In this document: positions 1,983 to 11,189 of the stretch, piece after piece
Position numbering within the stretch: position 1 is the first letter of the stretch
How the letters are laid out: the number at the start of each line of letters is the position of its first letter
Source of the DNA: Candidatus Pacearchaeota archaeon
GTDB lineage: Archaea; Nanobdellota; Nanobdellia; Pacearchaeales; GW2011-AR1
Assembly: GCA_040879765.1 (NCBI GenBank)
Contig: JBBDJQ010000001.1
Coordinates: 348,023 to 412,022, forward strand
Reading direction: 5' to 3'
DNA: 64,000 bases
Notes under the pieces: generated by a model
The model's input: the letters and a program-made list of their open reading frames with translations, nothing else
Told to the model about the DNA's origin: nothing
The model's database searches: none
Program-made: the position numbers and the translations under genes

Positions 1983-2795
1983 TTAATGTTCCCAAGGAAA
2001 GAATCCAAGAACAGAATTATTTAATTCGTCTCTAAGTTGAGGCCATTGAGGTAAATGAGAATCCATCAAATTGAAAAATTTATCTGTATGATTTTTTTCT
2101 TTAAAATGAATCATTTCATGTAATAAAACATATTCTAAGCATCTAAGTGGATTTTTTGCAAGTTCCAAATTCAACCATATTCTTTTATCTTCAGCGTTAC
2201 AAGTTCCCCATTTTGTTTTCATCTTTTTAATAATAACTTCATTAACTTTAACTCCTGAATTCTTTTCCCATCTTTCTATAAGTTCAGGAATCTGTTTTTT
2301 AAGTTCTGCTCGATAAAAACTTTCAAGCATTTTCTCTTTTTGTTCTCTTGACATATTAGGCTTAACATACAAATCAATATGAGTTTTCTTTTTTATTTCA
2401 ACTCTAGGCTTATTTTCTGTATCAATTACATTCAATCTATACCTATTGCCTAAAAAATAATGACTTTCTCCAGAAATAAATTCTCTTTTAGTTTGTCTTT
2501 TTTGTCTCTCAAATTTCGCTTTTTGTTTTTTAATCCATGGAATTTTAGAAATTATGAATAATCTAATAGATTCATCATTCATCTTTTTTGGAGCTGCGAC
2601 CCTTATTCTACCTTGAGGAGGATAAACTCCCAAGTGCATATTTTTGATATTCTTCTTTACAGTTTGCACTTGTAAACCGCAAATCTGCATATTATCAAGA
2701 CTGGTACTCACTTTGAGCCTCCGCAATTTTGAAGACTTTCTCAACATTTTCGTCATCATCAATATCATATTTTGAAAGAGCTTTCTTAATCCCAA
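1983..2795 (-). CDS. M48/DUF45 (YgjP/WLM-like) zinc metallohydrolase
   Basis: HEMIH (HExxH) motif and the 'WI.KQ' N-terminal region typical of DUF45. An alternative ATG at 2690 would give a 4-nt overlap with the hsdR stop. This family is often found adjacent to hsdR. Confidence 0.75.
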   Translation of the reverse strand: MGLRKLFQNMILMMTKMLRKSSKLRRLKVSTSLDNMQICGLQVQTVKKNIKNMHLGVYPPQGRIRVAAPKKMNDESIRLFIISKIPWIKKQKAKFERQKRQTKREFISGESHYFLGNRYRLNVIDTENKPRVEIKKKTHIDLYVKPNMSREQKEKMLESFYRAELKKQIPELIERWEKNSGVKVNEVIIKKMKTKWGTCNAEDKRIWLNLELAKNPLRCLEYVLLHEMIHFKEKNHTDKFFNLMDSHLPQWPQLRDELNNSVLGFFPWEH

Positions 2796-5772
2796 TTCGG
2801 ATTTTTTTCTCTTTCATTTTATTGCCTTTCCAACTATCTTGTTTTGATTTTAAAATATTTTTATGGATAGAAACCGCAATATTTTCATCATTATCTAAAT
2901 TATCATATAAAGAACGCATTGCATTTGTTTCAATTGAGTCGGGATATTTTGTTTTCCCTGTATCTCTTACTCTCTTTATAAGTTCAGCAATTTTCTTTAA
3001 ATAATTAGCATAATCAATCGCTTTCTTTTTTCTATCAATTATTAATTCATCTAATAAGAAAGACATCCTTTCATAATATTTTGGATTAGTTGGTTTTTCT
3101 TCAATAATCAATCTACGAACATTATTTTCAATTGCTTCTGCTACTGCTTGTTTATTCTTTTTAATATTATCAGGCAAATCATTAACTGCATCTATTCCTT
3201 TTCTAATTATTAAATCAACAAGAGTCATATCTTCAAATGCTGAGATTGTTTTGCTTTCTTCAGCATCAATATATGAATCAATTAAATGCCTCATTGCTGG
3301 CTCATAAGCTTTCAAGTCAATATAATCTCCGCTAGCAAGCTTTACTTCTAGTCTTACCCCTTCATAATATTTTACTTCTTTTTTTATTTTTTCAATTTCT
3401 TGTTTAGTATATCCTGCCTTTGCCATTTCGTTTGCAAGATTTGAAAATGATCTTACTAACTTTGAAGTAAGTTTGTATAATGCAATTCTCTTTTGTTCGT
3501 TATTTTTCAAATCATCAGGATTTTCTGTATCCCCACAGAAGAATTCTATAAAAGCAAGTGTATCTTTTGGAGGTTTAACTGGTTCGCACAATACTTTGAT
3601 TGCCTCTCTTGAATCTTCAAGTTTTTCTTTTGATTTTTCAAGTCTGTCTTTAAGTAAACCTGCAACATCATCTTTATCAAATCCTTCAAATGCTTCAGAA
3701 GTATAATCAGTTACTGCCTTGTTTAAACTCTTGAATAAATCTTTATAATCAATTATATATCCATAATCTTTATCTTCAGAATCAAGCCTGTTTACTCTAC
3801 AAATTGCTTGAAATAATCCATGATCTTGCATACTTTTATCAATATAAAGATATGTTGCTGGTGGAGCATCAAAACCAGTCAATAGTTTATCAACCACAAT
3901 AAGAAGTTTCATCTGGTGTGGTTCTTTAATGAATTTATCTTTTATGATTCTTTCAAAAGTTTCTGCATCCTTAATATCTGAATAAATAGTTTTATAGAAT
4001 TTTATCATGTCTTGATATATTTGATATTTCTGAATGTTTTCTGTATCTTCATCCATATCAACAGTTTCTCCTTTAACAGAACTGATATCTCCCCCGTATG
4101 ATGAGATAATTGCACATTTTTTTAATCCATTTTTTTGAAATAATTCATAATATTTGCAAGCTTGATAAATGCTTCCTGCGACAAGAATTGCGTTTCCTCT
4201 TCCGCTGATTAATCTGTCTTTTGTTTCCATATCAAGCATAATATCTGCAACAATTCTGTTTAATCTCGCTTGAGAACTCAAAACTTTTCTCATTGTTCCC
4301 CATTTCTTTTTTAGCTCAACTTTAGCAAAATCATTTAATCCTCTAGTTTTTGCTTCAAACCATTGATCAATCTTATTTTGAGAATTTATTTTTTGGTCAA
4401 TTTCTCTTGCTTCGTATTGCAAATCAAGAACAACTTCATCTTCAACTGCTTCATCATATTTGTAAGTATGAATATATCTTCCAAATGTTTCTATACTTCT
4501 TTTTTTCTCGCTTTTTAGAAGTGGTGTTCCTGTAAAACCAATAAAGGTTGCATCAGGCAATATTTCAGTCATTGCTTCGTGCAATTTCCCAGATTGTGTT
4601 CTATGACATTCATCTACAAAAACATAAATATCTCCTTTTGCTTTAAAGTTTTGAGGGAGACTTATCTTAATCTCTTCAAGATATTTTTCAAAATCTGTTT
4701 CTGTGCTTCTACCAAATTTATGAACTAAAGAACACATAAGCCATGGTAATGTATTGTTTAATTTATTGATTAAGTCTCTCCCACTTTTAGTTCTATAAAT
4801 TTCTTCATTTACTCCCATAAAGAATTTTTCAATCTGACCGTCTAATTCTTCCCTGTCTGTTATGATTAGAACCCTTGAGTTTGTGATGTTTTCTCTTATC
4901 CATTTAGCAAGCCAAATCATGGTTAAGCTTTTTCCAGAGCCTTGGGTATGCCAAATTATTCCGCCTTCTTTTTTCTTGAGGTGTTTTTGTGCTGCTTTTA
5001 CTCCAAAATATTGATTATGTCTGCAAATCTTTTTGATTCCTGCATCAAAGACTATAAAATTGTGGATTAGTTCAAGAATTCTTTCTTTTTCGCAAATGGA
5101 GAGGAGATATTTATCTAATTTATTCTTTATGTTTTTGTTTTCTTTCCAGTTCAGATAATATTTTTCAGGAGTGAGAATTGTTGCATATCTTAATCCTTCT
5201 GTATCATTTCCAGCCATAACTAATTGGATTGTGCTAAAGAAATTTTGAATAAATGTGTTTTTTTGATTGTCCAAGTTTTGTCTTATACCTTCTGTAATTG
5301 AAACAGTGCTTCGTTTTAATTCTAAAACTCCAACAGCAATTCCGTTGATGTAGATGACAACATCAGGTCTCTTATTATGTTCTCCTTTGATTGTGACTTC
5401 TTCAGCTATTGCAAAATGGTTTTTCTTTATATTTGTCCAATCAATTAAATGAACAGTCTTTTTATTTTCTCCAACATTTTCTCTGACCTGGATTCCATAT
5501 CTAAGCATTTCATAGACTTCTTTATTGAGATCATAAAGCCCTTTGTTCTGTGCTTTTGCCGCCTTATTTAATTCATATAATGCTTTTTTGATTAAGTTTT
5601 CAGAATATTTCTGTTTTTTGAGGAATTTGATTAAAAGTTCTTCTTCAATATTTGAGTTTGTTCTTTCTTCCCAGTTTCCTAAATAATCATAATCCAGCTT
5701 ATCTTTATCAGTAAATAGCTTTATGACTCTGTCTTGAGTCTTTCTTTCAATTTGTGCGACATTCATTTCCAT
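2695..5772 (-). CDS. hsdR: Type I restriction enzyme R subunit (HsdR)
   Basis: 1025 aa. N-terminal PD-(D/E)xK nuclease region (DVVIYINGIAVGVLELK). Helicase motif I HTQGSGKSLTM, motif II VDECHR, and a TGTP motif. 10-nt overlap with the hsdS 3' end. Confidence 0.9.
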   Translation of the reverse strand: MEMNVAQIERKTQDRVIKLFTDKDKLDYDYLGNWEERTNSNIEEELLIKFLKKQKYSENLIKKALYELNKAAKAQNKGLYDLNKEVYEMLRYGIQVRENVGENKKTVHLIDWTNIKKNHFAIAEEVTIKGEHNKRPDVVIYINGIAVGVLELKRSTVSITEGIRQNLDNQKNTFIQNFFSTIQLVMAGNDTEGLRYATILTPEKYYLNWKENKNIKNKLDKYLLSICEKERILELIHNFIVFDAGIKKICRHNQYFGVKAAQKHLKKKEGGIIWHTQGSGKSLTMIWLAKWIRENITNSRVLIITDREELDGQIEKFFMGVNEEIYRTKSGRDLINKLNNTLPWLMCSLVHKFGRSTETDFEKYLEEIKISLPQNFKAKGDIYVFVDECHRTQSGKLHEAMTEILPDATFIGFTGTPLLKSEKKRSIETFGRYIHTYKYDEAVEDEVVLDLQYEAREIDQKINSQNKIDQWFEAKTRGLNDFAKVELKKKWGTMRKVLSSQARLNRIVADIMLDMETKDRLISGRGNAILVAGSIYQACKYYELFQKNGLKKCAIISSYGGDISSVKGETVDMDEDTENIQKYQIYQDMIKFYKTIYSDIKDAETFERIIKDKFIKEPHQMKLLIVVDKLLTGFDAPPATYLYIDKSMQDHGLFQAICRVNRLDSEDKDYGYIIDYKDLFKSLNKAVTDYTSEAFEGFDKDDVAGLLKDRLEKSKEKLEDSREAIKVLCEPVKPPKDTLAFIEFFCGDTENPDDLKNNEQKRIALYKLTSKLVRSFSNLANEMAKAGYTKQEIEKIKKEVKYYEGVRLEVKLASGDYIDLKAYEPAMRHLIDSYIDAEESKTISAFEDMTLVDLIIRKGIDAVNDLPDNIKKNKQAVAEAIENNVRRLIIEEKPTNPKYYERMSFLLDELIIDRKKKAIDYANYLKKIAELIKRVRDTGKTKYPDSIETNAMRSLYDNLDNDENIAVSIHKNILKSKQDSWKGNKMKEKKIRIGIKKALSKYDIDDDENVEKVFKIAEAQSEYQS

Positions 5773-6983
5773 TTTAATCTTATCCTGCCTGTTAATAATT
5801 GTTGCATCATACCTTCTTTAATCATTTGGTATTTATTACGCTTTTGTTCTAATTGTTCGATTTCAGAGTCCATATCTGAGAGGATTGAAGCGATTGCGGA
5901 TTGTTCCTTTTGATCATTTGGGATTTTTAACTCAAATTCTTGAAATGTGGGTAACCTCAAAGAATCAACTGTTGCTTTAACAGAGTTTTTTGTTGCCTGT
6001 TTATGAAAATCATAAAGCATATAGTAATAAATGAATTTCCCAGAAATTTCTCTGCCAAAATTACTTATTTTATACACTCTTTGATGATAGTCGAATTTTC
6101 CATTAATATAATGGAATATGCTACCAACTCCACCTTCTCCAGGCACAAGTATTGCTTCACCATCAAATGAATAAGAATTTATTCTCTCGACATTTTGTGA
6201 CCTTACAAAGAAAGGATATGAAGCTTCTTCAATTTTATCTTCATTATTTTTCTTGCCAGTTTTAATGTCAGTAAAATCTCCCAACTTCTTCTCTTCCCAT
6301 TCTCCACTAAACCCTGGCAGTCTTTTCTTTCCTGTCAAGAGTTCCTGCATTGCTCCTTTTTTGATGTCTTTCTTTTTTGAGATGAGTTTGTTGAGGTGTT
6401 GGATTAATTCATCAGTTTGTGAGAGGGCGGTTGCGATTGCTGATTGTTCTTGTTTTGACTTTGGGAGGGCAACTTTTGTTTTTCTGAATACATCCATCCC
6501 TACAAGATTTTTCATAGCTCCTCCTTGAGTGCTATCAATTATTTTATCCTGAAATTTTTCCCAATCAAAATATTGAAAGAAATAATCTTTATCAATAATG
6601 GACGAGTTTAACCTAATAATCAAAAGAGCTTGATTAATTATTCCTTGTGGGGCATTTTTAGGTATTAAATATATTCTTCCAATCGTGCCTGAACAACTCA
6701 CTATAAAATCTCCAGATTTGACTTCAAATCTTTTTAATTCCATAAATTTATTTTGATCAATATAATAGTCTCCAAGTTCTATGTCTCTGTAAATTGCATT
6801 TTTTTGTTCATAAACTTTTAGACCTCTTTTTACAAAAAACTCTTTTTTAAGTGAACCACCAAAAGGTCCTCTAATTAATCCATCAGATTCTGTTAGTTCT
6901 GAAAGAGTACCATCTTCCCAATCTTCAGGTATAACTCCTATTTCAGTTTGCTTGTATCCTTGTGGAATTGTTTCAGTCGTCAT
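5763..6983 (-). CDS. hsdS: Type I R-M specificity subunit (HsdS)
   Basis: 406 aa with two target-recognition domains. The conserved repeats AMQELLTGKKRL and MMQQLLTGRIRL are typical of HsdS. Confidence 0.85.
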   Translation of the reverse strand: MTTETIPQGYKQTEIGVIPEDWEDGTLSELTESDGLIRGPFGGSLKKEFFVKRGLKVYEQKNAIYRDIELGDYYIDQNKFMELKRFEVKSGDFIVSCSGTIGRIYLIPKNAPQGIINQALLIIRLNSSIIDKDYFFQYFDWEKFQDKIIDSTQGGAMKNLVGMDVFRKTKVALPKSKQEQSAIATALSQTDELIQHLNKLISKKKDIKKGAMQELLTGKKRLPGFSGEWEEKKLGDFTDIKTGKKNNEDKIEEASYPFFVRSQNVERINSYSFDGEAILVPGEGGVGSIFHYINGKFDYHQRVYKISNFGREISGKFIYYYMLYDFHKQATKNSVKATVDSLRLPTFQEFELKIPNDQKEQSAIASILSDMDSEIEQLEQKRNKYQMIKEGMMQQLLTGRIRLKWK

Positions 6984-6984
6984 A

Positions 6985-8631
6985 TTAGTCTACCTTCGTT
7001 AAAAAGACAAATAACAAATTGCCTTCTTTGTATTTAATTGGATGGATATTAACTAATATTTTATCTTGTTTTAACTCGTTATTAGCAGTTGTTTCAATTG
7101 TTACTGCCATATCACTTTTAAAATTGTAAACTGGATTTATAGTCTGGTCATCTTCAATCCCGTAAATAATACAATGTCTTGTTAACTTATCGACATCAAT
7201 ATATTTCTTAATAGTAGGAACTAAAGTATTCTTAGCAAATTCTGTGGGTTTAGGATTGTAAGCACTCGCTGATTTAAATTCTAAAATATCCTCATTAGTA
7301 GTCAATCCATCTGTTTTTTGAAATTCATATTCAATATCTGGCAGAAACGAATCTAATAGATATTCAAAAATATAATTAAAATGTTTGGATTTTATACAAG
7401 ATTGCATTAGATGGCAAAAAGAAACTTTTAGACTTAGTTTTAATTTTGCACTTTGAGCATCTTGGATTTTATTGATGAAATTAGATGTTAATTCCTCGAA
7501 GTTATGACATAAATTCAGATTATTATATATAATTAAATTTCCTATTCTAAAACTCTCCTTGCTTGCATCTTCTCCTGCATGATATACTTCGTATCTTGTA
7601 TTATTGAATATTGCATCGTTGATTTTTATTAATAAAGTCTGCTTTGGTTTTATGACTGGAGAATATTTAGTTGAAAATAAGATGTTATACCTTGGATGTG
7701 TTTTCCTTATTATTACCTCTTCTTCGTTTCCTTTAAATTCAGAAACAGAGTTTTCATCTTCAACATAACGATACTTATCATCTTTCATAAATTTACTTAA
7801 TCCTTCGGTGCTTGGAATCAATAAGTTAAATCTCTTCTTGTACTCATCTAGTTTTTCTGTTTCAGTTACAAAAAAATCATAAAATTTAGGATAATCTAAG
7901 GCTTTTCCATAAACGAATACTTTTGAGATTGTCCCTTCCTCTTTTCCTAAAATAATTTTTCCAGAGTGACTTATTTTACGCTCATCAATCATGCTTTTAA
8001 GTTGATCATTATCCAAGTTAATCTGCACAGGAATACTAATTGCATCTAATTCTATGTTTAAACAAATATTGCCTAAAGATTCCCAACCAATGTCTTCAAT
8101 CTCAATGCCCCAGAATTTAGCATGACCTTTGCTGAATTTTCTGCTTTGCTCATAAGCCAATAATTTTAAAATACCCTCTTCCTTTTTGATTATATCTGCT
8201 CGCACTATATTTTTTGAATGTAGTATTGTTTGTACAGATACAACTTTATCTTCAACCTCTGCCAGAGAAGGTCCTTTTTTACAATGAACAATAACAAACA
8301 CATCATTTAATTGTAAAACTGCAAGAATGAACTTTTCTTTCTCCCTTGATCTTGAATTTAAGACAGCCCTATATTCATTTATTATATCTTCAACTTCTGA
8401 TTCTTTCTTATCTGGATAGCTTGAAAAAACTAGGTTTAACCATTTCTTAACAGATGGATTTTCGGGAGATAAATCTTGTAGATTTCGTTTTTTCCCAATT
8501 ATTTTATCCTCCAGACTTCTGATTAATTCTCTAATACTTTTATCTTCTTCCACTTCATTAGAAAGTAAAATATCCTCTGCTTCTTTCTCTGGTTGATTTG
8601 CAAGTTTTTCCCAAAAGTATATCTTTGCCAT
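6985..8631 (-). CDS. Uncharacterised 548-aa protein embedded in the type I R-M operon (no P-loop, no recognised nuclease motif)
   Basis: The ATG at 8631 lies 1 nt after the hsdM stop. Its own stop lies 1 nt before the hsdS ATG. I recognise no signature domain. The ORF track extends the ORF to a TTG at 8643. Confidence 0.6.
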   Translation of the reverse strand: MAKIYFWEKLANQPEKEAEDILLSNEVEEDKSIRELIRSLEDKIIGKKRNLQDLSPENPSVKKWLNLVFSSYPDKKESEVEDIINEYRAVLNSRSREKEKFILAVLQLNDVFVIVHCKKGPSLAEVEDKVVSVQTILHSKNIVRADIIKKEEGILKLLAYEQSRKFSKGHAKFWGIEIEDIGWESLGNICLNIELDAISIPVQINLDNDQLKSMIDERKISHSGKIILGKEEGTISKVFVYGKALDYPKFYDFFVTETEKLDEYKKRFNLLIPSTEGLSKFMKDDKYRYVEDENSVSEFKGNEEEVIIRKTHPRYNILFSTKYSPVIKPKQTLLIKINDAIFNNTRYEVYHAGEDASKESFRIGNLIIYNNLNLCHNFEELTSNFINKIQDAQSAKLKLSLKVSFCHLMQSCIKSKHFNYIFEYLLDSFLPDIEYEFQKTDGLTTNEDILEFKSASAYNPKPTEFAKNTLVPTIKKYIDVDKLTRHCIIYGIEDDQTINPVYNFKSDMAVTIETTANNELKQDKILVNIHPIKYKEGNLLFVFLTKVD

Positions 8632-8632
8632 C

Positions 8633-11041
8633 CTACAACTCAAACCCCATATTCTTCAAATGACCTTCGACCTTCTTGCTCAATTCTTCAACTTCTTTTG
8701 TGAGTTCAGGAAGTGGTGCTTCATATCTTTCAGCTAACTCCTTAATTCTACCAGCTAATTTCTGCGAAATTCGTTCCATCTCGCTTTTAACTGCATTCCG
8801 AAGTGTTGTCATCCATTTATCATCAACAACTAAAACCTTAATCTCTTCTTCAGTCAAAGTATTATATTTCTTTAATAACTGCCTATCAAGAGTTTCTTCT
8901 GCTTCTTTGATTTGTTTCTTCAATACACTTTCCTTCTCAATCAAATCAAGATATTCTTGAAGAATTTTTAATTCGTCCAAATACTCAGAATCTCCTTTAA
9001 TTTCTTTGATTCTTTTGTTCAAATCGTTTTTAGTGATTTTTCCTGCATCACTTCGAGCATCAGCAAATAAGTCATCTTCTCCTGAATGTTCTTCTTCCAA
9101 ACTTTCTTTATTCTGAGAAACTTCTTCAAGCTCATTTTTTAGATTATCAATATTTTCTTGTTCAGCAGAAAAATATCTTTTTATAACAATCTCTTTAGGA
9201 ATTAAATCACAATCCCAGCCTGTTTCTTTTCCTTTCTTATTTTTTAGAATATTAATTTCAACTTTCCAACCACCAAAGACAACCATATAAGCATCATCCT
9301 GCATGGTTTCAGCCCAATAATTCATCAAATGCTGATAAACTTCATACTTATCAATCAAATCAAGTTTAGCAAACGAATTCAAAATATCTTCTGATATAGT
9401 AAAAATTAATTCTTTAGGTTTATCTGCTATCTTCAAAGCTTTCAAAACTTTAACATTTCTGTTCTCCCATTCATCAAATACTAACTCGATTTTTTTAGAA
9501 TATGCAATAAACTCAGGATGAGCAAATATGGAAGATTTAACCTTTTCATGTTCTATTTTAATCTTTACATATCCATCTCTTGAAGTAGCAAACAGTTCAT
9601 TTTGAAGAGTAGGATACACTTTCCAATATTCTCCTAAAGCTTCAACATCTTTTTTAGGAATGTCTCCTTTCAAATGCGCGTCAATATCTTGCATGTCTTC
9701 TTCTTCTTGGCTGTCAATATATCGAGGAATATTTAGATTATAATCGTTTTTCTCATTGCATATTTCAGTATGTGCAACCATCCTTGAATATTTTGGAAGT
9801 TCAAGCTGTTTGTTAAATACATCAACAATCTTATGAATATCTCTTGAACGTAAACGGTTTTTATTTCCGTCTTTATAGTATCCTTTGCTTGCATCTATCA
9901 TAAAAATACCTTTTCTATTTTCAGCATTTTCTTTATCTATAATTATTATACAAGCAGGAATTCCAGTTCCAAAAAACAAGTTAGCAGGAAGTCCAATAAT
10001 TCCTTTAATGTATCCTCTTTTGATTATGTTCTTTCTTATCTGTCCTTCAGCATTTCCTCTAAATAATACGCCATGCGGCAATATTACTGCTGCTTTTCCA
10101 GTACTCTTAAGAGACCTAATCATATGCAACAAGAAAGCATAATCCCCATTTTTCTTTGGAGGAATTCCAAAACCTTCAAATCTTCCGAATTCATCATTAT
10201 CTGCATCTAATCCATTACTCCAATTTTTACTGGAAAATGGAGGATTAGCTACTAAATAATCAAATGTCTTTAAGCCACCATCTGGATTTTTAAAATGAGG
10301 AGCAGAAAGAGTATTTCCCCTCCAAATATCAGCAGTAGGATTATTATGTAAAATCATATTCATCTTAGCCAAACCACGAGTTGCAACATCATTTTCTTGA
10401 CCGTAAATAGTAATTCCATGTTTTGTTTCAGAAGCTGCTTTCAACAATAATGAACCTGAACCACAAGTTGGATCATAAACTGTTTTTGCCTGACTATCTG
10501 CTTTTTCTATTTCAATAACTTTTGCCATGATTCTTGAAACTTCAGCAGGAGTATAAAATTGACCTTTACTTTTTCCTGATTCTGTTGCAAAATGTCTCAT
10601 TAGATATTCATAAGCATCTCCAAGCAAATCATCATCTTCTGCTCTATTCTTACTAAAATCTAAAGCAGGATTTTCAAAAATTGCAACAAGATTTGAAAGC
10701 CTATTCTGCATATCTTTTCCACTTCCAAGTTTGTCTGAATCATTAAAATCTGCAACATCAATAACTCCTTTTAATTCATTAGATTCTGCAAGTTTAGAAA
10801 TAATTTTATTCATTCCATCGCCGATTTCAGCTTTTCCTTTCAACTTTATCATATCATCAAAGCTTCCACCATTAGGAACATCAATTAAAAATTCTTGATC
10901 GGATTTTGCTTTATCAGAAACATATTTTACGAATAAAAGAACTAAGACATAATCTTTATACTGTGAGGCATCCATACCACCTCTTAATTCATCGCAACTT
11001 TTCCAAAGAGAGCTGTATAATTCACTTTTTTTTACTGCCAT
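8633..11041 (-). CDS. hsdM: Type I R-M N6-adenine DNA methyltransferase (HsdM) with ~300-aa C-terminal coiled-coil extension
   Basis: Motif I DPTCGSGSLL and motif IV NPPF. 802 aa. The C-terminal third is charged and coiled-coil-like. Confidence 0.9.
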   Translation of the reverse strand: MAVKKSELYSSLWKSCDELRGGMDASQYKDYVLVLLFVKYVSDKAKSDQEFLIDVPNGGSFDDMIKLKGKAEIGDGMNKIISKLAESNELKGVIDVADFNDSDKLGSGKDMQNRLSNLVAIFENPALDFSKNRAEDDDLLGDAYEYLMRHFATESGKSKGQFYTPAEVSRIMAKVIEIEKADSQAKTVYDPTCGSGSLLLKAASETKHGITIYGQENDVATRGLAKMNMILHNNPTADIWRGNTLSAPHFKNPDGGLKTFDYLVANPPFSSKNWSNGLDADNDEFGRFEGFGIPPKKNGDYAFLLHMIRSLKSTGKAAVILPHGVLFRGNAEGQIRKNIIKRGYIKGIIGLPANLFFGTGIPACIIIIDKENAENRKGIFMIDASKGYYKDGNKNRLRSRDIHKIVDVFNKQLELPKYSRMVAHTEICNEKNDYNLNIPRYIDSQEEEDMQDIDAHLKGDIPKKDVEALGEYWKVYPTLQNELFATSRDGYVKIKIEHEKVKSSIFAHPEFIAYSKKIELVFDEWENRNVKVLKALKIADKPKELIFTISEDILNSFAKLDLIDKYEVYQHLMNYWAETMQDDAYMVVFGGWKVEINILKNKKGKETGWDCDLIPKEIVIKRYFSAEQENIDNLKNELEEVSQNKESLEEEHSGEDDLFADARSDAGKITKNDLNKRIKEIKGDSEYLDELKILQEYLDLIEKESVLKKQIKEAEETLDRQLLKKYNTLTEEEIKVLVVDDKWMTTLRNAVKSEMERISQKLAGRIKELAERYEAPLPELTKEVEELSKKVEGHLKNMGFEL

Positions 11042-11042
11042 A

Positions 11043-11189
11043 TTATTCTCGCCCCCTCTTCTTTAGTTCTTCTTCCATACACTTTTCAAATTGACGAGAT
11101 ACAATCCAACCCTCATGTTTACAGAGTTCTCTATATTTATCATATAATTTCGTATTAACTTTCAATGTGATATTTTTACTTTCTTCCAT
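11043..11189 (-). CDS. Small ribbon-helix-helix (CopG-like) protein, putative operon regulator
   Basis: 48-aa ORF, MEESKNITLKVNTKLYDKYRELCKHEGWIVSRQFEKCMEEELKKRGRE, absent from the ORF track because it is below the length cut-off. It has a beta-strand followed by two helices. Its stop TAA lies 1 nt before the hsdM ATG. It is preceded by a GAGGGGGCGAGAATG SD-like motif. Confidence 0.5.
   Translation of the reverse strand: MEESKNITLKVNTKLYDKYRELCKHEGWIVSRQFEKCMEEELKKRGRE

Follow-up and report, generated by a model that had tools for sequence, protein, structure and literature searches.

A putative YejK-like and Schlafen fusion protein encoded between hsdM and hsdS of an archaeal type I restriction-modification operon

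Introduction

What does a 548-aa protein of no recognized family do when its gene lies in the middle of a type I restriction-modification (R-M) operon? The gene, which we call X, is found in a Candidatus Pacearchaeota archaeon (GenBank assembly GCA_040879765.1, contig JBBDJQ010000001.1), and we analyzed it within a window of 64,000 nucleotides. "The window" refers here to that whole stretch of DNA (positions 348,023 to 412,022 of the contig), and all coordinates are counted from its first letter. A sequence-only reading of this DNA had proposed that X is an integral, co-translated member of an hsdM-X-hsdS-hsdR operon and a candidate accessory defense component, and cited the anticodon nucleases PrrC and RloC as examples of such genes. 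We examined the operon, the relatives of X and their neighborhoods, and the domains that X is predicted to contain. The account that we favor, with confidence a little better than even, is that X is a single-chain, DNA-sensing Schlafen effector that is carried as accessory cargo of R-M loci and backs up restriction.

Results

The genes flanking X are genuine type I subunits, and all genes of the operon lie on the minus strand. The hsdM gene (8633..11041) encodes a long-form HsdM of 802 aa with Pfam HsdM_N and N6_Mtase domains (8e-105), a TIGR00497 match that exceeds the cut-off of that model, and a full-length match to PADLOC MTase_I (PDLC03027). The hsdS product (5763..6983, 406 aa) matches Pfam Methylase_S in two stretches (3.5e-30) and PADLOC Specificity_I, while hsdR (2695..5772, 1025 aa) contains Pfam HSDR_N, SWI2_SNF2, and T1R_D3-like domains and matches PADLOC REase_I. 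Gene X occupies 6985..8631 and is defined by its open reading frame, start codon, homologues, and AF2 model. A longer, TTG-initiated frame extends to 8643; because 35 homologues align from the residues MAKIYFWEK onward, we place the start of X at the ATG at 8631, which gives 548 aa.

Tight coupling of X to both neighbors, as originally claimed, is evident in the DNA. Taken from ORF coordinates and the minus-strand sequence, intergenic spacing is 1 nt for hsdM/X, 1 nt for X/hsdS, and -10 nt for hsdS/hsdR. The hsdM stop codon TAG (8635..8633) is separated by a single nucleotide from the X start at 8631 (GAGTTG-TAG-G-ATG-GCAAAG), and the X stop codon TAA (6987..6985) is likewise separated from the hsdS ATG at 6983 (GTAGAC-TAA-T-ATG-ACG). 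The hsdS stop codon TGA (5765..5763) lies downstream of the hsdR ATG at 5772, so that the two genes overlap by 10 nt. Coupling spans further than the earlier reading saw, with additional genes at both ends of the operon. A 48-aa ORF (11043..11189), possibly a ribbon-helix-helix (RHH) regulator by its sub-threshold match to RepB-RCR_reg (E 0.009), has its stop 1 nt ahead of the hsdM ATG. The last operon gene (1983..2690) encodes a YgjP-like metallopeptidase (Pfam YgjP-like, 6e-62), whose probable start is an in-frame ATG at 2690, 4 nt past the hsdR stop. A YgjP-like gene is also found 3' of hsdR at three other loci (L015, L016, and L060). Promoter and terminator scans used bacterial sigma-70 models and were uninformative for an archaeon.

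The coupling is real rather than an artefact of assembly, since the same gene order recurs in complete genomes. The complete Thermococcus sp. P6 genome has the order hsdM-X-hsdS-hsdR (X orthologue A3L12_01345), as do two Methanocaldococcus villosus assemblies (X orthologue J422_03438), a closed Woesearchaeota MAG, and several metagenome contigs. In six out of seven complete loci (counting the window), hsdM and X are 1 to 12 nt apart, and the distance from X to hsdS ranges from -11 to +8 nt.

Searches with X itself against Pfam, NCBIfam, PADLOC, and PHROGs gave no useful match (best E 0.056), and PADLOC found none among 36 relatives of X. Several assignments could nonetheless be rejected. X contains no Walker A motif ([AG]xxxxGK[ST]) and no ATPase Pfam match, which agrees with the earlier statement that it lacks a P-loop and argues against a P-loop NTPase. 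That statement had also found no confident HNH, PD-(D/E)xK, or HEPN signature; inspection of the motifs showed that none of the three is conserved, and the part that needs revision is that a divergent Schlafen/AlbA_2 nuclease motif is present, as described below. X has two Rx4-6H strings, the pattern of HEPN active sites, which begin at R164 and R346. In a family alignment of 81 sequences, position 164 is Arg in 18 and position 170 is His in 15, and R346 does not belong to the set of positions with conservation in 57 or more sequences, although H351 is near-invariant; there is also no HEPN Pfam match in X. X is not a duplicated or split HsdM or HsdS subunit, having no N6_Mtase, HsdM_N, or Methylase_S match in Pfam or PADLOC, and it was never recruited by jackhmmer searches that started from HsdM and HsdS and covered every ORF of 45 loci. 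A relationship to KwaB/DUF4868 was rejected as well (Foldseek probability 0.13, no PADLOC match).

X belongs to a rare family that is, with few exceptions, archaeal. The family comprises 45 homologues, with 165 clusters at 50% identity, and a renewed search with a broad alignment recovered the same 44 proteins. Members occur in DPANN archaea, methanogens, ANME, Thermococcales, and Asgard archaea, and none were found in IMG/VR viral contigs, PLSDB plasmids, or phage records. By a hand count of 37 informative, non-redundant loci, about 27 have a methylase-based defense system (type I, II, IIG, or Hma) beside the X homologue, and no homologue carries a housekeeping annotation. Other neighbors include a SIR2 protein (PDC-S65), HepT/MNT, SduA_C, and a reverse transcriptase, and about a quarter of the informative loci have no defense neighbor (L004, L023, L050, and L061). 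One clade is always located between hsdM and hsdS, and so is a distant member with 21% identity. Family members are also found with type II, IIG, Hma, and type IV systems, and some stand by themselves, so X cannot be regarded as an obligatory part of type I systems. Together with the recurrence of the operon in complete genomes and the lack of similarity to HsdM or HsdS, these patterns uphold the proposal that X is an operon-integral, R-M-linked candidate for accessory defense.

Comparison of the window with a second type I locus (L001) shows that X moves between operons as a cassette. The two X proteins are 87% identical, whereas the accompanying HsdM, HsdS, and HsdR proteins are only 31%, 25%, and 27% identical and the HsdM partners differ in length by 300 aa. 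Identity at the DNA level begins exactly at the X ATG. This exchange between unrelated type I operons shows the hsdM/hsdS junction to be a docking site for defense cargo.

The exchange of partners bears on a rival explanation, in which X is a latent nuclease masked by contact with the type I enzyme and freed once that enzyme has been disabled by an anti-restriction protein of a virus. The E. coli prr locus, in which PrrC is masked by EcoprrI, is an established precedent for such a guard. Coupling on both sides of X would favor co-assembly with the Hsd proteins, as would the placement of the distant, 21%-identical member between the same two genes. However, masking by a specific protein contact fits poorly with partners so divergent and so varied: some family members are found with type II, IIG, or Hma systems, and others without any R-M system. 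Like PrrC and RloC, X would be a nuclease encoded within a type I operon and might use translational shutdown to back up restriction, but it has neither their ABC-ATPase N-domain nor a HEPN-type active site, sits between hsdM and hsdS, and has evidently interchangeable partners. X is thus not a relative of the nucleases that had been offered as its examples, and only the logic may be similar. We consider a guard of this kind unlikely, and we return to the favored reading of X as an effector carried by R-M loci.

The AF2 model of X (pLDDT 83) suggests three parts: a YejK (NA37)-like fold with a beta-rich middle domain (residues 1-375, 7507..8631), a three-helix linker (residues 376-440, 7312..7506), and a nuclease domain (residues 441-548, 6988..7311). 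The C-terminal part is most likely a divergent Schlafen/AlbA_2 nuclease domain, as judged by sequence comparison, and the model shows the fold of a Schlafen nuclease lobe. X alone scores below threshold against PF04326 (10.9 bits, E 0.67; cut-off 25.3), but 24 of 36 relatives have weak matches (best 7.7e-6) and one family member (P0042) has a precomputed match. With a profile built from the 81 family sequences, the two best matches among PDB sequences were Schlafen nuclease domains (5yd0 and 7fex); these appear only with this broader profile, and searches with the close family or a C-terminal sub-alignment (phmmer and profile) gave only spurious hits to Mcm3, thymidylate synthase, and beta-lactamase.

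The residues that align are those of the catalytic region. E447, E451, and K453 align to "ESasIEFK" of 5yd0 and 7fex, in the catalytic region of SLFN13 and SLFN11, and the turn G491-I-E493-D494 aligns to "fGVDD" of 5yd0. X therefore has the downstream acidic residue of the G-[VI]-D-D-like turn, which we take to correspond to D248 of SLFN13. These are the most conserved positions across the 81 sequences, with identities down to 14%: E447 is present in 79, E451 in 74, K453 in 80, and G491 in all 81, and an acidic residue (D or E) is found at position 493 in 69 and at position 494 in 76. The wider family has E-x4-E-x-K, in agreement with the Ex4(E/D)xK catalytic motif published for human and prokaryotic Schlafens (PMC13056530, PMC13462974), whereas the clade in the window is one residue shorter (E447-x3-E451-x-K453), so catalysis by X should not be taken for granted. 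A non-catalytic X, in which the AlbA_2 domain only binds nucleic acid and X modulates R-M expression, target choice, or methylation, nevertheless seems rather improbable to us: strict conservation of the Schlafen catalytic residues is the pattern of an active site, unlike that of a binding surface, and the small RHH-like ORF already fills the position of an operon regulator. An effector with a working nuclease remains the reading that we prefer.

The N-terminal 375 or so residues most likely adopt a fold like that of YejK, a nucleoid-associated DNA clamp that binds dsDNA as a dimer with an electropositive pore, according to the structural model, with marginal support from sequence. YejK was the only convincing structural match, and its two-domain fold is seen in the model, although TM-scores were low (0.28 and 0.31). 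X is 11% identical to E. coli YejK/NdpA (NA37; PDB 9be2), is longer by about 40 residues, conserves a different set of positions, and shows no significant profile match to it. The NA37 model PF04245 matched neither X, nor 35 relatives, nor 10 distant members. In hhalign comparisons, the X family aligned to E. coli YejK with a probability of 0.4% and to a nine-sequence NA37 alignment with a probability of 1% (E 0.05, P 0.05), in the latter case with conserved positions lining up. The nine-sequence alignment was built from plasmid-borne homologues, as a search for homologues of YejK gave only orthologues at least 81% identical, which were unusable for a diverse profile. Common to the X family and YejK is a motif, S[DE]xFx[DE][FW]LG, with basic residues ahead of it. 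In X these are R164, K165, and K168, and in YejK they are R173, R176, and K177, which are required for DNA binding (PMC11229321).

The N-terminal part also has its own set of near-invariant residues, namely R94, E97, K100, H116, N141, R144, E161, G175, K310, H351, and N370. Because the His, Asn, Glu, and Lys residues are kept more tightly than a non-specific clamp would need, this part of X may do something other than bind DNA. In a stronger version of the PANGU-like reading that is taken up below, these residues would form a second catalytic or small-molecule-binding site, and the "sensor" would be an enzyme new to the YejK fold. That X is instead a DNA-directed nuclease, processing fragments or degrading ends of restricted invader DNA rather than cleaving RNA abortively, would fit its predicted clamp-like N-terminus, its constant pairing with DNA-targeting systems, and the possibility of another active site among these polar residues, but we regard it as very unlikely.

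Discussion

Domain similarities, conserved catalytic residues, association with R-M systems, and cassette-like exchange together are most consistent with X as an accessory effector of restriction loci. The C-terminal 110 or so residues, with their helical lead-in, would form a metal-dependent nuclease of the Schlafen/AlbA_2 type in which the catalytic signature would be intact. Judging from all characterized Schlafens, this nuclease would most likely cut tRNA or other RNA and thereby arrest translation, and the N-terminal part would most likely be a DNA-binding sensor or regulator. Translational coupling could keep the output of X at a fixed ratio to that of HsdM and HsdS. X would stay silent while its DNA-binding module is in a resting state, and a DNA-level signal (restriction under way, restriction that has failed, or a chromosome being degraded) would switch the nuclease on, so that abortive immunity would stand as a second line behind restriction.

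X shares several features with prokaryotic Schlafens (pSlfn), which are tRNA-cleaving effectors fused to sensors and of which more than half of those linked to defense adjoin R-M systems (PMC13462974). Like pSlfn5 (Schlafen with an Ig-like sensor) and Cash (Schlafen with Csx15), X has a predicted AlbA_2/Schlafen fold, keeps E...E/D-x-K and the downstream acidic pair, and combines a putative nuclease with a larger non-catalytic module in a gene beside R-M systems (PMC13056530, PMC13462974). Unlike them, its Schlafen domain is C-terminal, shorter (about 110 aa plus helices), and below the Pfam threshold, with the E-x3-E-x-K spacing in the window clade. The fused YejK-like module is absent from the frequent architectures in these two papers, and the family differs in being almost entirely archaeal, with one clade inserted between hsdM and hsdS. 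The fusion of YejK-like and Schlafen modules was not found in the literature that we searched, the supplementary catalogues of the Schlafen papers lying outside that search.

The other half of X recalls PANGU, in which YejK-like nucleoid-associated proteins sense genome degradation and activate toxins (bioRxiv 10.64898/2026.04.06.716658). In both, a YejK-fold part occurs in a defense context linked to R-M and other systems and is paired with a toxic effector, and the suggested logic for X is likewise that a nucleoid-binding module senses the state of the DNA. In contrast to the two-gene PANGU operons, with effectors such as GRel toxins and lysozymes, X is one polypeptide with a Schlafen effector. 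It is undetected by NA37 sequence models, and its conserved polar residues have no counterpart among the invariant positions of the nine-sequence YejK alignment. X is not a member of PANGU, as its modules are fused in 548 aa and its neighbors are Hsd subunits rather than PANGU effectors. YejK itself stands alone as an abundant protein of the bacterial chromosome, whereas X is found rarely, in archaeal defense islands. It is possible, though in our judgment doubtful, that X is the first archaeal counterpart in which the PANGU principle is realized in a single chain, with a YejK-fold reader of DNA state directly gating a fused Schlafen RNase in a cassette that can be plugged into any methylase-based restriction system to back it up abortively. 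Restriction-generated ends and a virus-degraded chromosome are examples of the DNA states that such a reader might recognize.

Recognition of Schlafen nucleases and of YejK-like nucleoid sensors as parts of prokaryotic immunity came only in 2026, in bacteria, and the X family would unite the two in one protein, in archaea. A docking site at the hsdM/hsdS junction matters for annotating the many "hypothetical" genes inside R-M loci. X is a compact, one-gene system of about 550 aa with cultured hosts, Thermococcus sp. P6 and Methanocaldococcus villosus, and it allows one to ask how restriction may be coupled to an effector of translational shutdown, and which signal would pass between them.

Operon context and gene boundaries

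The sequence-only reading had placed X in a row hsdM-X-hsdS-hsdR, which both the six-frame list of ORFs and the sequence of the minus strand bear out. Four consecutive minus-strand genes are present: hsdM (8633..11041, 802 aa), X (6985..8631, 548 aa), hsdS (5763..6983, 406 aa), and hsdR (2695..5772, 1025 aa). In the minus-strand sequence, the hsdM/X junction reads TAG-G-ATG, the X/hsdS junction reads TAA-T-ATG, and hsdS and hsdR overlap by 10 nt. Pfam, NCBIfam, and PADLOC identify the products of hsdM, hsdS, and hsdR unambiguously as type I subunits. The mechanical ORF of X in the six-frame list runs on to a TTG at 8643; we assign the start to the ATG at 8631 because every one of the 35 aligned homologues starts at the position of MAKIYFWEK. 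Translational coupling of M and S is documented for classical type I systems (PMC3510504), and X is inserted into the hsdM/hsdS junction with coupling kept on both sides.

Coupling of these four genes stands as originally noted, but the coupled block is longer than that, with a further ORF at each end. A 48-aa minus-strand ORF (MEESKNITLKVNTKLYDKYRELCKHEGWIVSRQFEKCMEEELKKRGRE; 11043..11189), whose stop lies 1 nt ahead of the hsdM ATG, weakly resembles ribbon-helix-helix proteins (RepB-RCR_reg, E 0.009, below threshold) and may encode the controller protein of the operon. At the other end, a YgjP-like zinc metallopeptidase gene (1983..2690, minus strand) has an in-frame ATG at 2690, 4 nt past the hsdR stop; the TTG ORF on the list would run ~100 nt into hsdR, and the 4-nt gap applies only with this ATG. 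The YgjP-like gene also follows hsdR at three other loci carrying X homologues, and seems to accompany these type I systems regularly. The genes around the operon are ordinary (serine hydrolase, TrmB regulator, RNase HII) and GC is uniform (~0.30–0.33), and we therefore regard this as an R-M operon standing alone in a small genome. We also note that the window HsdM is unusually long, with a charged C-terminal extension of ~350 aa that is probably coiled-coil, compared with 490–570 aa for HsdM proteins adjoining X in other genomes. Its match to the PADLOC MTase_I model PDLC03027 is full-length.

Size and distribution of the X family

X itself matched no Pfam, NCBIfam, or PADLOC model, and it is a member of a genuine family that is small and lacks annotation. 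By word-indexed search, 45 homologues were retrieved; their sources are Woesearchaeota, Methanocaldococcus villosus, Thermococcus sp. P6, Caldisericum, an Actinomycetota MAG, and numerous metagenomes, and a Candidatus Pacearchaeota MAG has an identical protein on record. When 1.84 billion cluster representatives were searched exhaustively with a profile, only 165 clusters reached E <= 1e-3, nearly all 510–600 aa and matched end to end, with Asgard archaea (Promethearchaeia, Helarchaeota) as the named distant members. Further members turned up in ANME-2, Methanoregula, Methanolobus, Methanothrix, and Promethearchaeota when genomes and metagenomes were scanned, and homologues were absent from the IMG/VR, PLSDB, and phage records searched. 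Together, the cluster count, taxon spread, and these negative searches indicate that the family is rare, chromosomal, and predominantly archaeal.

A probable Schlafen-type C-terminal domain

The C-terminus of X very probably carries a Schlafen-type domain. In a 36-sequence alignment, 24 members weakly matched PF04326 (SLFN_AlbA_2) at this end (best E 7.7e-6), with only 10.9 bits for the window protein. When the alignment was widened to 81 sequences (identity down to 14%), its profile ranked rat Schlafen 5yd0 first (E 0.036) and SLFN11 7fex second (E 0.13) among PDB sequences, aligning the family motifs E-x4-E-x-K and G-[IV]-[DE]-[DE] onto "ESasIEFK" and "fGVDD". These positions are the most conserved of the whole family: E447 in 79/81 sequences, E451 in 74/81 (Asp in four more), K453 in 80/81, and G491 in 81/81, with positions 493 and 494 acidic in 69/81 and 76/81, respectively. 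In the clade of the window the motif is one residue short (E-x3-E-x-K), though E447 is still invariant there. Schlafens of humans and prokaryotes share Ex4(E/D)xK as their catalytic motif, and the prokaryotic enzymes defend against phage by cleaving tRNA (PMC13056530, PMC13462974; both 2026). We consider it reasonably likely that X is an active nuclease.

A YejK-like N-terminal module

The predicted fold of the N-terminus is YejK-like: in Foldseek, YejK was the single high-probability match (0.96), and all others were at or below 0.13. Sequence support for this link is marginal. The Pfam model of the YejK family, NA37, was unmatched by the X family in Pfam scans, and hhalign against E. coli YejK alone returned nothing. 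Against a nine-sequence NA37 alignment assembled from plasmid-borne homologues, hhalign gave a probability of 1% (E = P = 0.05) over X 167–263 and YejK 179–270. In this stretch a motif with identical spacing is common to both, K..S-[ED]-S-F-x-[ED]-W-L-G in the X family and R-K-V-S-D-[FY]-F-x-D-F-[LI]-G in YejK. DNA binding by YejK needs the basic residues R173, R176, and K177 (PMC11229321), and the module of X would be expected to bind DNA as well. We judge homology to YejK fairly probable, and lean, slightly less firmly, toward the full prediction of a YejK-like DNA-binding module.

Ten near-invariant polar residues (R94, E97, K100, H116, N141, R144, E161, K310, H351, and N370) span X 94–370 (window 7522..8352) and are kept across the family at identities down to 14%. 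They are without counterpart among the invariant positions of the nine-sequence YejK alignment, and most lie where a predicted beta strand ends. The YejK-like module may thus carry a second site, catalytic or ligand-binding, made up of these residues.

Genomic company of X

Neighbours were annotated by local jackhmmer with the window Hsd proteins, Pfam and PADLOC scans, and precomputed Pfam labels of contigs, which left about 37 informative loci after removal of duplicates. X adjoins type I genes (hsdM on its upstream side, hsdS on its downstream side, or both) at 15 loci, the window and the distant L059 among them, and four more have type I genes in a different arrangement or within 3 kb. Type II R-M genes accompany X at three loci (one with NgoPII and a C5 methylase, another with an N6_N4 methylase and BglII), type IIG enzymes at two, and an Hma system, a methylase fragment, and GmrSD at one each. 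Three have other defence-like genes (SIR2 PDC-S65; an AlbA_2 giant with AAA_15/21; a reverse transcriptase with HTH), and about seven have no recognisable neighbour. A defence role for X, as the sequence-only reading had proposed, is likely.

In a rough NJ tree that left out the distant locus L059, the hsdM-X-hsdS loci formed one clade. The L059 member, only 21% identical, also sits between hsdM and hsdS, which means that the type I association is old or has arisen repeatedly.

The hsd operon is a docking site for accessory genes, as marked by other cargo in the same operons: Fic/DOC, a wHTH + MNT + HepT toxin-antitoxin set, a RusA-like resolvase, DUF3800, and a Shedu-type SduA_C nuclease domain (L001 14481–15644; L015 1753–2757 and 5771–6220; L002 8407–9024; L059 8883–9653). 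Separately, a ~370-aa ORF lies downstream of X on the same strand at L030 (5663–6778), L031 (8445–9560), and L036 (5440–6552). Of these, the copy at L030 carries an SDH/ClpP-like serine protease domain, the one at L036 has no Pfam match, and the ORF has no PADLOC match; it could be a partner gene of X in that clade. At L040 (3239–4900), X is split into three overlapping ORFs flanked by hsdM and hsdS fragments, reflecting either a decaying locus or a sequencing error of the metagenome contig.

Cassette-like exchange, relation to known systems, and proposed mechanism

X travels between operons as a cassette. In the Woesearchaeota genome L001, X is 87% identical to that of the window, compared with 31% for HsdM (which differs by 300 aa in length), 25% for HsdS, and 27% for HsdR. 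Nucleotide identity is 79% between window 6915..8631 and L001 10001..11705, beginning exactly at the X ATG (8631) and ending ~68 nt into hsdS, in the stretch encoding the conserved N-terminal part of the protein. The pattern suggests that recombination carried X together with the 5' end of hsdS between otherwise unrelated type I operons. Strict masking of X by the type I enzyme, in the manner of PrrC, fits poorly with an 87%-identical X beside Hsd partners of only 25%–31% identity, and we weigh against it: the function of X cannot hinge on an interface closely adapted to a single type I enzyme.

In PANGU, a YejK-like sensor and its toxin are encoded as separate genes; X joins both modules in one protein and has a different effector, which rules out a PANGU system. 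PrrC and RloC are ruled out by the lack of an ATPase and a HEPN motif, and identity as an Hsd subunit was rejected. X failed the NA37 sequence test, scores weakly against PF04326, passes the predicted-fold tests for NA37 and Schlafen, and keeps the Schlafen catalytic residues. A survey of prokaryotic Schlafens describes 55 architectures, with 17% of proteins fused to unrecognised domains, and none of the frequent architectures it names, its supplementary catalogue aside, pairs a Schlafen with a YejK-like module (PMC13056530). Given these fold results, the failed memberships, and its absence from those named architectures, we rate X as a new variant beside the Schlafen and YejK systems, an archaeal fusion of a YejK fold with a C-terminal Schlafen domain riding inside R-M operons.

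YejK-like proteins are sensors that leave the nucleoid once phage degrades it and then activate separate toxins (PANGU; bioRxiv 10.64898/2026.04.06.716658), and Schlafen nucleases are effectors fused to varied sensors (PMC13056530, PMC13462974). More than half of defence-linked prokaryotic Schlafens adjoin R-M systems, and how they are activated is still unknown (PMC13462974). X would combine YejK-like sensing and a Schlafen effector in one chain, with the YejK-like module binding DNA and gating the C-terminal nuclease. Since YejK and Schlafens both act as dimers, gating may operate through control of dimerisation, and coupling to hsdM and hsdS would tie X dosage to the methylase core. This specific mechanism is tentative, and we hold it somewhat doubtful. 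The interchangeable Hsd partners favour DNA state as the signal, one that every methylase-based restriction system would share.
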